Positions 42,001 through 45,000 of a stretch of DNA of 45,946 nucleotides are shown one piece after another. The stretch is from IMG/VR virus record IMGVR_UViG_2585427775_000005; one strand, given 5' to 3'. The DNA comes from a virus (lineage: Duplodnaviria; Heunggongvirae; Uroviricota; Caudoviricetes). Position numbers: made by a program. Position 1 is the first letter of the stretch. Each line of letters starts with the position of its first letter.

Positions 42001-45000
42001 GAGCGTCTCCGGCCCGCACATCAGGCCGGGGACGGATTTCTGGTTTTATGTGCGCAGCGTCAACCTGGTGGGGAAATCTGCGTTTGTGGAAGCCAGTGGC
42101 CGGGCGAGCAATGATGCGGAAGGGTATCTGGACTTTTTCAGAGGAGAAATCGGGAAGACACATCTGGCACAGGGGATGTGGGAGCTGATTGATAACAGCC
42201 AGCTTGACGATGAGATGGCGGAGATGAAGACCACCATCACCGAAACCCGCAATGAAATCACGCAGACGGTCAGTAAAACTCTGGAAGACCAGAGTGCCAC
42301 CATACAGCAGATACAGCGGGTGCAGACAGACACAAATAACGACCTGGCTGCGCTGTACATGCTGAAGGTGCAGAAAACAAAAAACGGCATTCCGTATGTT
42401 GCCGGTATAGGTGCGGGGATTGAGGATGCTGATGGCCAGCCCCTGAGCAATATACTGCTGCAGGCGGACCGTATCGCGATGATTAACCCGGAGAACGGCA
42501 ACACCACGCCGCTGTTTGTGGCGCAGGGGAATCAGCTGTTCATGAACGATGTGTTCCTGAAGCGGTTGTTTGCAGTGAGCATCACCTCGTCCGGCAATCC
42601 CCCGACGTTCTCCCTGACGCCGGAGGGCAGGCTGACGGCCCGCAATGCGGACATCAGCGGACATATCAGTGCGAACTCGGGCACGCTCAATAATGTCGTG
42701 ATAGCGGAGAACTGTACGATAAATGGCACGCTGAAAGCGGAGAACATTATTGGTGATCTTGTGAAATGTGCAGGGGTGGCTTTTCCGGTGGATGGTAGTT
42801 ACCTTGCGAACGGTACACGAACGCTGACGGTGTATGACGATCACAGCTTTGACCGGCAGATTATAATCCCGCCGATAATCTATGTCGGGTCAAAACAGGA
42901 ATCCCGCACCAGTAATGACATCTGGACAGAGTGCTTCCTGCATGTTGATCAGAACGGACGCCGGATTTATTCAGGCAGGTCAGTGACAGAGCCGGGAATT
43001 TTCAGCGGGATCATCGATATGCCAGCCGGTCATGGTCATATCACCCTGAGTTTTACCGTAAGTTCACGACGTCAGAACGGGAGTTTTGGCAGTTCACGTA
43101 TCAGTAACCTTCAGGCGATAGTGGTGAAGAAAAACAGCGCGGGGATCAGTATCCGCTGAACATCGCGCCCCGGGATTGCCGGAAGGAGACAAAAACCGTA
43201 CAGTATGCGCGGGTGCCTTTGGCTGATGGCCGGAGGGAACACCTGAAGGCCGGATGTGAAAAGGCCCCGGGCAAACATTCATGTTTAACCCGAGGCCTGA
43301 CCATTCATCCTAAGCAAGTGAAAGGTTAGCGCCTCTCCGTAAAAGGAGCAAGCGTTTATGTCGCAAAAACCGTTAAAAACCACCGTGATTTGTATCACGG
43401 TAGTGCTCATTATCTGGATCACCCACAGTTCACTGTGCGAGTTCCGGTTCCGGATAGCGGGCGCGGAGATTGCGGCGTTCTTACAGTGTAAGCAGTAAGA
43501 AACCGTGGCGGGGGAGAATATCCCCCGCCGACCGGTTGCTGAGGGTGGTCAGCCGGATGGCACCGTTTTAACACCAACAAACCACAAATTTTACCGCAGG
43601 CCGGGAAACCGGTACTGCGGTTTTTTTATGGGGGAAATCCATGACAGTCAGAATATCGGGTGTGCTGAAGGATGGTACGGGAAAAGCGGTACCGGGATGC
43701 ACGATAGAGCTGAAAGCGCGCCGCACAACGGAGACGGTGATTGTCACCACGGTGGCGTATGGTCAGCCGGGGGAAACCGGCAGTTACAGTATGGATGTTG
43801 AGCCGGGGTTGTACCGGGTGACGCTGAACACGGAAGGGTACGCGCCGTCATATGTGGGTGACATTCTGGTGAAGGCGGATTCTGCACCGGGAACGCTGAA
43901 TAAATTTCTGATGGACCTGGAGGACGCACAGTATTACCCGAAAGCCCTTGCAGAGCTGGAAGCGGTGGCAGCGGAAATCCTGAAACGTGCAGAAGCGTCA
44001 GCGGCGAGTGCAGAGGAAGCGAAGAAACGGGCAGAGAATGCGCGGGGACCGAAGGGGGATAAGGGGGACACCGGGCCGCAGGGTATTCCCGGGCCAAAAG
44101 GCGATACCGGCGAGCGGGGGCCAAAGGGTGAGCGTGGTGAGACAGGACCACAGGGGCTTCAGGGTGTGAAAGGTGAACGGGGAGAGAAGGGCGAAAAAGG
44201 CGAGCCGGGAGGGCCGGATGCGACGACGGCACAGAAGGGAATTGTGCAGTTAAGCAGCGCAACGGACAGTGATGATGAAACGAAGGCAGCCACCCCGAAA
44301 GCGGTGAAAGCGGCAATGGACAAAGCGGACGGATGCCTGGAGAAAGCGAAAAACGGTGACGATATCCCGGATAAGGTGAAGTTTCTGAACACCGTGGGAG
44401 CAGCCAGAGTATACGGGCGGGACATTCATACGGAGACCGGTGAATGGACCACGAGTGAGTTTGTGGCCTGGCTGAAAGAAAAGGGGGCATTTGACCAGCC
44501 TTACTGGATGATGAAGGCATCACTGCTTGCGGAATTTAATAAGGTCATCACGGATGTCGGACCGGGAAAACTCAATCTGGGAGGCTGCGCCATTGAGGTG
44601 ATGGGGACGTATAACGCAGCCATAGTCCGGGTCACCATCGGCGAATACGGTGGCGATGGTTTTCTGAACGGCACGGTCTGTACCTGTACAGTTTACGGAG
44701 ACACACAACGTTTTCACTGGCGGGGGGATTACAGCACAAAAAACAAGCCCACAACAGCAAGCCTGACAGTAAATGGCTGGGAGCGTGATGAAGTAACCGG
44801 TCGTTTGCGGCAATGGGGCAGTATTGAGGTAAGTGAGGATGATGGTAAGCTTATGACACAACACTCTATCCGTTTTCCTGTCGCTTTTCCGGTTGCTGCT
44901 CTGAATGCTCAGGTGTCTGCAGTGGGAGACCCCAACGTCATTAAGATGTATACCCTGTCGAATCCGTCATTAGTGTCTGTGACTCTGATAACAGTCAGGG

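Follow-up and report, generated by a model that had tools for sequence, protein, structure and literature searches.

A type I toxin-antitoxin module of the hok/sok kind, self-contained and inserted as an autonomous unit, very probably resides between the tail tip gene J and the tail fiber gene stf of a lambdoid prophage. The stretch of DNA analyzed, hereafter the window, is the IMG/VR record IMGVR_UViG_2585427775_000005, 45,946 nucleotides assigned to Caudoviricetes. J ends at 43159, stf starts at 43641 (Pfam phage_tail_N, 138 bits), and a 481-bp spacer separates the two genes. The sole credible open reading frame (ORF) of the spacer (43358-43498, + strand) has 46 codons, is preceded by a strong Shine-Dalgarno sequence, and encodes the peptide MSQKPLKTTVICITVVLIIWITHSSLCEFRFRIAGAEIAAFLQCKQ. 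No lom gene was found in 43160-43640 by the reading of ORFs and Pfam matches, and the hok ORF occupies the position that lom has in lambda. ORF, ribosome-binding site and lom position had all been correctly noted in the original prediction, which was made from the sequence alone.

That the 46-residue product is a Hok-family membrane toxin is strongly supported. The peptide aligns to positions 8-42 of the 42-position Pfam profile PF01848 (HOK_GEF) with 43.5 bits (E 2.4e-11, gathering score 22), and its resemblance to Hok is therefore far above chance. The proposed Hok/Gef pattern, which the lack of any profile hit would have called into question, is sustained by this alignment. A survey of 1264 Hok peptides lists seven residues whose conservation exceeds 80% (M1, C16, T18, L30, C31, E32 and E41 of the logo; bioRxiv 10.1101/2025.08.07.668861). 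When the peptide is aligned with HokD and R1 Hok, M1, C12, T14, L26, C27, E28 and E37 fall at these positions. Relatives of the locus were gathered from one-genome-per-species and viral contig collections and reduced to 58 unique 500-bp loci, which form two clusters at 60% identity and span several genera. The ORF is intact, with its 46 codons, in 58 of the 58, and the ratio of nonsynonymous to synonymous substitution rates (dN/dS) ranges from 0.15 to 0.66.

The second Hok-family toxin gene announced by the original prediction is a hok gene according to both Pfam and RefSeq, but not an unrecognized one. An identical protein, WP_000078852.1, is listed in RefSeq as "Hok/Gef family protein", and is encoded between gpJ and a tail fiber gene in E. 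coli TB06053, which shares 100% identity over the J-stf spacer region. At least 80% of the 481-bp spacer is held by 270 of 5426 complete E. coli genomes. The same locus occurs in phage 1720a-02, where the ORF is labelled "hypothetical protein". Escalera-Maurer et al. list the exact 46-aa peptide in their survey of Hok peptides, as sequence 1562 of cluster 79 (2025-26; bioRxiv 10.1101/2025.08.07.668861). The toxin gene is thus already annotated and catalogued, and as a gene call adds nothing. The Q46R variant 79_1563 and a relative from cluster 72, 72_1589, were cloned for toxicity assays in the same survey, the text of which names 19_179, 60_1482 and 69_1540, out of 45, as non-toxic constructs (bioRxiv 10.1101/2025.08.07.668861). 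It is the absence from the list given in that text, and not a result reported construct by construct, which suggests that both 79_1563 and 72_1589 are toxic. By its own statement, the survey made no attempt to define mok, Sok or mRNA ends (bioRxiv 10.1101/2025.08.07.668861).

Predicted RNAs of the J-stf locus

The elements recognized in the spacer are collected in Table 1, along with the other hok locus of the window. The interpretation of the region as a hok locus is supported by the leader RNA, which is probably homologous to other hok leaders: 43211-43369 (+ strand) aligns to all the 157 positions (1-157) of the Rfam model RF01794 with 57.0 bits (gathering score 59, E 5.8e-12), a significant match slightly short of the curated threshold. 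RF01794 is named "sok", after the antitoxin, yet matches the hok-coding strand both at 9899-10073 and at 43211-43369. The model describes the sense hok leader, and the strand that it matches should therefore not be read as the Sok strand.

Table 1. Coordinates of the elements of the J-stf hok locus, and of the other hok locus of the window
Feature	Position	Strand	Remarks
hok promoter, predicted	43176-43204	+	-35 TTGCCG 43176-43181, 17-nt spacer, -10 TACAGT 43199-43204
Full-length hok mRNA, predicted	43211-43627	+	~417 nt, from the GGGTGCC start to the terminator
tac-like 5' element	43211-43230	+	GGTGCC 43212-43217 and GGCTGA 43221-43226; partner is the fbi box or the ucb box
ucb-like box	43260-43268	+	AAAGGCCCC; partner is the GAGGCC box (full-length fold) or tac (3' end removed)
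Antisense-target hairpin	43292-43335	+	GAGGCC...GCGCCUC, loop CUAA 43310-43313; from Rfam alignment, fold of the truncated RNA and alignment of relatives
hok Shine-Dalgarno	43343-43348	+	AAGGAG, 9 nt 5' of the ATG; within the hairpin AGCGCCUCUCC...GGAGCAAGCGU
Post-stop stem-loop	43501-43537	+	Outer AACCG/CGGTT; inner GGCGGGGG 43507-43514 / CCCCCGCC 43522-43529
fbi-like fold-back box	43549-43565	+	TCAGCC 43549-43554 and GGCACC 43559-43564, complementary to tac
Intrinsic terminator	43593-43627	+	ACCGCAGGCCGG GAAA CCGGTACTGCGGT, stem 43593-43621, T7 43621-43627; 14 nt 5' of the stf start codon
Sok-like promoter, predicted	43323-43351	-	-35 TTGCTC 43351 to 43346, 17-nt spacer, -10 TAACCT 43328 to 43323
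Sok-like RNA, predicted	43259-43316	-	~58 nt, 43316 to 43259; 18-nt single-stranded 5' tail, GC-rich hairpin 43298 to 43262, UUUU; ends +/- ~2 nt
Other hok locus (hokD/hokW type)	9899-10223	+	Leader passes Rfam RF01794; in-frame mok ATG 10011; hok coding sequence 10068-10223

Transcription of hok is predicted to start at about 43211, and the distance between a TAnnnT -10 hexamer and the conserved 5' GGGTGCC is constant in all relatives. The RNA elements have been named after the work on R1 (PMC9841398). Closure by tac/fbi pairing defines the full-length hok mRNA. The alignment of 19 representative relatives begins with the GGGTGCC conserved at the 5' end and stops at the 3' box GGCACC. Closure of the ~417-nt mRNA on itself by means of tac-fbi pairing is strongly supported. 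The 5'-3' closure is predicted by RNAalifold on the 19 relatives, and in the single fold of 43211-43628 the segment 43212-43231 pairs with ~43546-43565, the terminator hairpin being formed at the end. In the alignment 98.1% of the cells corresponding to the 5'-3' helices and to the post-stop hairpin are paired, against 30-55% when partners are slid. Compensatory changes, affecting both sides of a pair, are seen in 54 cells (shuffles 18, slid controls 0-2) and involve all four pairs (UA/CG, GC/CG, GC/AU, CG/GC) of the inner tac-fbi helix. Removal of the 3' box is predicted to change the picture. In the fold of 43211-43545 the 5' end shifts from fbi to ucb, and the hairpin at 43292-43335, expected by the Rfam model, forms. 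The tac-ucb helix is 87% paired in the 19 relatives, with one compensatory pair. It is well supported by these folds that, in the truncated RNA, tac would pair with ucb, and the leader would take the structure common to hok leaders. The target hairpin is homologous to the R1 hairpin which hosts the mok start and the Sok target, but is devoid of a start codon.

Both 3' structures described in the original prediction, a hairpin after the stop codon and an intrinsic terminator ahead of stf, are present. The post-stop stem-loop is 99% paired in the 19 relatives, and five of the nine inner pairs exhibit compensatory changes. By analogy with the last stem-loop of the truncated R1 hok mRNA (PMC9841398), it is likely to protect the 3' end of the processed mRNA. 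Read on the minus strand, the hairpin at 43507-43529 is followed by ACGGTTTCTT and scores as terminator-like, being the only match provided by a consensus scan for sigma-70 promoters (threshold 9/12) and terminators over 43100-43700. In this orientation it could halt antisense transcription entering from stf. The terminator preceding stf was overlooked by the scan, because an internal loop interrupts the stem. It is present in the minimum-energy fold, and is kept, with changes in the stem, in close relatives (L012, L028, L030).

In the original prediction no Sok-like antisense RNA was defined for this locus. A candidate is definable by homology. The antisense promoter, for which a search had been advised, has a plausible counterpart in the TTGCTC-17-TAACCT motif of the minus strand, of which every one of the 19 relatives keeps a version (-35 TTGnnn or TTTACT, -10 TAACCT or TATCCT). 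A collinear minus-strand motif, TTGCGC-17-TATCCT, is read in the sequence of the R1-type locus, and is regarded here as the Sok promoter of R1. The RNA predicted downstream has the same architecture as the antisense strands of R1-type and hokD-type loci, and its hairpin is also kept in 19 of 19 relatives. The target hairpin presents the loop CUAA, to which the 5' tail of the antisense RNA is complementary and which fits the YUNR (U-turn) rule for recognition loops of the hok/sok family. The -10 hexamer, TAACCT, is the one altered in the promoter-less sokW construct of Takada et al. (AGGTTA to CGGCTC, primer YO-421), in which antitoxin activity was lost (PMC8621323). Sequence conservation supports the prediction that the putative minus-strand promoter would yield a Sok-like RNA of ~58 nt, complementary to 43259-43316.

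Lack of mok and proposed control of hok translation

In contrast to the elements described above, a mok-like frame overlapping hok, which the original prediction had suggested looking for, is missing. The leader has no start codon at the position homologous to that of mok, and no mok frame reads into hok in the window: the hok frame is shut by TAA 43340 (-18), the antisense -10 frame by TAG 43327, and the third frame is startless. None of the 58 unique relatives has an upstream start in the hok frame, which is shut 9-30 nt upstream in every one. No frame starting with ATG, GTG or TTG enters hok in 45 of the 58, and the starts found in the remaining 13 are scattered and non-homologous. As controls, R1-type and hokD-type loci display an in-frame ATG at -57, corresponding to 19 codons upstream of R1-type hok. 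A 38-codon GTG frame (43213-43329) was considered as mok and rejected: it starts 2 nt past the predicted transcription start, has no ribosome-binding site and no Pfam match, and ends before hok. As no mok frame reads into hok, Sok would be unable to act through mok in this subfamily.

A canonical hok/mok/sok arrangement may be saved by assuming a short or non-canonical mok, starting for example at the ATG of the frame 43282-43314, or at AUU 43303, 7 nt after GAGG. Translation of this mok would then free the ribosome-binding site of hok, and Sok would act by blocking the mok frame. The GAGG box, which in R1 is the mok ribosome-binding site, is indeed conserved, ATG 43282 is followed by 10 codons in the window, and a 1-nt indel carries this frame across hok in the close variants L018, L028 and L032. 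However, ATG 43282 lacks a ribosome-binding site and falls inside the hairpin of the Sok terminator region. The frame is not conserved beyond close relatives, the ATG being missing both in cluster 72 and in Salmonella-type relatives, and the position which corresponds to the mok ATG of R1 and hokD lacks a conserved start codon. GAGGC is in addition a strand of two conserved helices, a constraint which would account for its conservation. A hidden mok is, on these grounds, very unlikely.

Alternatively, the locus could be a decaying or silenced hok relic, in which translation has been turned off by loss of the mok start and acquisition of stops upstream of hok, and which persists by hitch-hiking with the tail fiber module. 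The absence of a mok frame is in keeping with this scenario, as in R1 toxicity is lost when the start codon of mok is mutated, or when mok is stopped prematurely, ahead of hok (PMC9841398). Some relatives, moreover, are visibly damaged. L070 (3852-4215) has lost the promoter and the tac part of the leader, and unrelated sequence is found 5' of GAAGGCC; in L074 (~4140-4215) the post-stop hairpin region is duplicated. Yet the locus gives no impression of being dead. Every unique relative, across both clusters and several genera, has an intact ORF, at the dN/dS values reported above, and ribosome-binding site, both promoters, tac/fbi pairing and antisense hairpin are maintained, in part by compensatory change. 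The lack of mok extends to the whole subfamily, as expected of a long-standing, stable condition and not of recent decay, and the coding sequences of both clusters are apparently toxic when expressed, to judge from the non-toxic constructs named in the survey text. That the locus is a relic is hence very improbable.

In a functional hok/sok-type module, as favored here, events may be envisaged by analogy with R1 hok/sok and hokW/sokW of the prophage Sp5. The full-length hok mRNA would be stable and silent, and would be turned into a translatable form by slow trimming at the 3' end. A short-lived antisense RNA would pair with the trimmed mRNA and block its expression, and the toxin would appear only once synthesis of the antisense RNA ceases. 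How Sok could work in the absence of mok is suggested by alternative pairings of the segment GCGCCUC (43329-43335). In the off state, either in the full-length or in the Sok-bound RNA, GCGCCUC would be paired with the hok ribosome-binding site. In the on state, in the processed, free RNA, it would be captured by GAGGCC (43292-43297) in the target hairpin. When the Sok footprint is held single-stranded, GCGCCUC returns to the ribosome-binding-site region in the predicted fold. The predicted cost of opening GGAG is 6.5 kcal/mol in the full-length RNA, 3.5 in the truncated RNA, and 6.4 in the truncated RNA with the Sok footprint single-stranded. The RNA states were not distinguished by the probability of being unpaired, averaged over 43342-43349; this parameter mixes loop and stem bases and is unsuited to the purpose, and opening energies have been used instead. 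The evidence for a direct action of Sok and of the RNA switch on the hok ribosome-binding site is suggestive, not conclusive. It is tentatively proposed, as a possibility which falls short of being probable, that clusters 79 and 72, which comprise tail-region hok loci of lambdoid and Shiga toxin (Stx) prophages, form a mok-independent branch, in which the ancestral switch between full-length and processed RNA persists together with the Sok target hairpin, GCGCCUC pairs with either GGAGCAAGCG or GAGGCC, and Sok represses by refolding the mRNA and not by blocking a leader peptide.

Several observations weigh against the assignment of the locus to the functional hok/sok-type modules. The hok promoter matches the sigma-70 consensus at 8 of 12 positions and the antisense promoter at 6 of 12, both under the 9/12 threshold, and neither was listed by the scan of 43100-43700. 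The leader falls 2 bits below the gathering score of RF01794. The switch at the ribosome-binding site is a thermodynamic prediction, modest in size (~3 kcal/mol), and goes in the same direction in ~13 of 19 relatives. Toxicity of R1 hok requires mok to be translated at least as far as the ribosome-binding site of hok (PMC9841398); a mok-less locus could therefore suffer from poor translation, and not be subject to a different mode of regulation. Toxicity of the window peptide is deduced via the one-residue variant Q46R, which was the one assayed, and via the list of non-toxic constructs in the survey text. Finally, the peptide does not reach the NCBIfam cut-offs for the HokA equivalog NF007290 (38.2 bits, cut-off 89) and the Hok subfamily NF007279 (37.2 bits, cut-off 73). 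The HokD-identical peptide of the window is likewise below both cut-offs, which makes these models narrow and little informative; the 46-aa peptide is not a HokA orthologue.

Relation to other hok loci and genomic context

The module is collinear with hok/sok (parB) of plasmid R1. The Hok-family peptides are 30% identical and share the Cys/Thr, LCE and Glu residues; tac, fbi and ucb boxes feature the same alternative pairings; the position of the predicted antisense promoter, the organization of the predicted antisense RNA in a 5' tail and a terminator hairpin, and the stem-loop right after the stop codon coincide. In turn, the toxin has 46 residues here and 52 in R1, the C-terminus is AAFLQCKQ here and AAFMAYESGK in R1, and the module is hosted by the late region of a prophage and not by a plasmid. 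The essential in-frame mok ATG located 57 nt upstream of R1 hok (PMC9841398) has no counterpart.

Closer in habitat are hokW/sokW of the Stx2 prophage Sp5 (VT2-Sakai, 933W family) and K-12 hokD. These loci are prophage-borne as well, and the antisense -10 hexamer TAACCT is identical. In contrast, they encode toxins of 51 aa, 37% identical to the 46-aa peptide, reside in another part of the phage genome, and have a mok frame (annotated as mokW in AP000422). The first hok locus of the window is of this type. Its leader (9899-10073) scores 117 bits on RF01794, and the product of the coding sequence 10068-10223 is identical to K-12 HokD as given in Table S1 of the Hok catalogue. The claim that the prophage carries two type I toxin loci, hokD at 10068 being the other one, is thereby confirmed. 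Both kinds of hok locus are present in Stx2 converting phage I, and two hok genes are found in 3.5% of hok-bearing phages (bioRxiv 10.1101/2025.08.07.668861); a prophage with two hok genes is uncommon but known. The published experiments on the hokW locus deal with its dependence on RNase III and Hfq, with the loss of sokW upon induction and with a two-fold effect on phage release (PMC8621323). The published hokW/sokW was considered as the 78%-identical Stx homologue of the J-stf locus, and this was rejected, as the primers used in the paper are of the hokD type (MKQQKAM...). The hokW experiments consequently apply to the first locus of the window, and to the J-stf locus only by analogy.

The closest relatives outside cluster 79 belong to cluster 72, found downstream of lom in 933W/Sp5-like Stx phages, with 65% protein and 78% DNA identity. 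Members of the two clusters share the size of the toxin (46 aa), the leader, tac/fbi boxes with compensatory differences, the predicted antisense promoter, the lack of mok and the vicinity of tail genes. Cluster-72 loci differ because they follow lom and precede a gp63-like gene, with no terminator of their own before the latter. The 46-aa hok gene 3' of lom is labelled "MokW-like host killing" in several phage records (L003 2171-2311, NC_029120.1 gp62), and is unannotated in many others. This gene is neither mok nor hokW.

Of the collections scanned, that with one genome per species gave no more than five loci, two with unlikely organism names, and useful diversity came from the viral collection. 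The hok loci of the Planococcaceae metagenome-assembled contig DEQA01000038.1 (L005) and of Vagococcus sp. WN89Y (L006) are nearly identical to that of Salmonella enterica (L007), and the occurrence of an enterobacterial hok locus under these Firmicutes labels is probably due to assembly contamination. Three hok copies of the subfamily under study are arranged in tandem in IMGVR_UViG_2757320580_000004 (L042, 2859-4215), with starts at 3008, 3502 and 4001 and a period of ~495 bp. Every copy is equipped with a leader and a 3' box, and encodes a different peptide.

Autonomous inserts of phage late regions such as lom and bor are known as morons. The hok module sits where lom resides in lambda, between J and stf, and carries its own predicted promoter and terminator. 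The content is unrelated, lom coding for an outer-membrane protein, the J-stf locus for a pair made by a toxin and a predicted antisense RNA. With this promoter and terminator, the module could be expressed from a repressed prophage. Its location within the late operon implies that late transcription would traverse the hok locus in the sense direction, head-on into the antisense promoter. Speculatively, sense late transcription might couple release of the toxin to induction, as reported for hokW.

The order of genes is fixed among relatives: alleles of the window type are always found in the order J-hok-stf, those of cluster 72 always in the order lom-hok-gp63. In a comparison of L012, L023 and their kin with the region 42260-43640 of the window, identity is 46-56% for the C-terminus of J and 99-100% for hok and the N-terminus of stf. 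Divergence of the former and near-identity of the latter place a boundary of recombination after the end of J and ahead of the hok promoter. Persistence of the J-hok-stf order in spite of divergent J sequences suggests that the module behaves as cargo linked to the downstream tail fiber module, and linkage of hok to stf offers a small clue on the way tail fiber modules are exchanged.

Further RNA genes have been recognized in the window at 9013-9195, 15438-15686 and 17127-17327. They include isrK (52 bits), a C4 antisense RNA (70 bits), three tRNA genes and STnc100 (147 bits). IsrK and the C4 antisense RNA closely precede the first hok locus.

The regulatory RNA parts of cluster 79, promoter, tac, ucb, target hairpin, fbi, terminator, antisense promoter and antisense RNA, have now been given coordinates. 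At the biological level, the module could contribute to prophage retention, to the exclusion of other phages, or to lysis at induction. What is left as novelty is the lack of mok throughout the subfamily, as mok is regarded as indispensable in the R1 paradigm. If active, the module would represent a natural test case for the control of a hok mRNA without a leader peptide.

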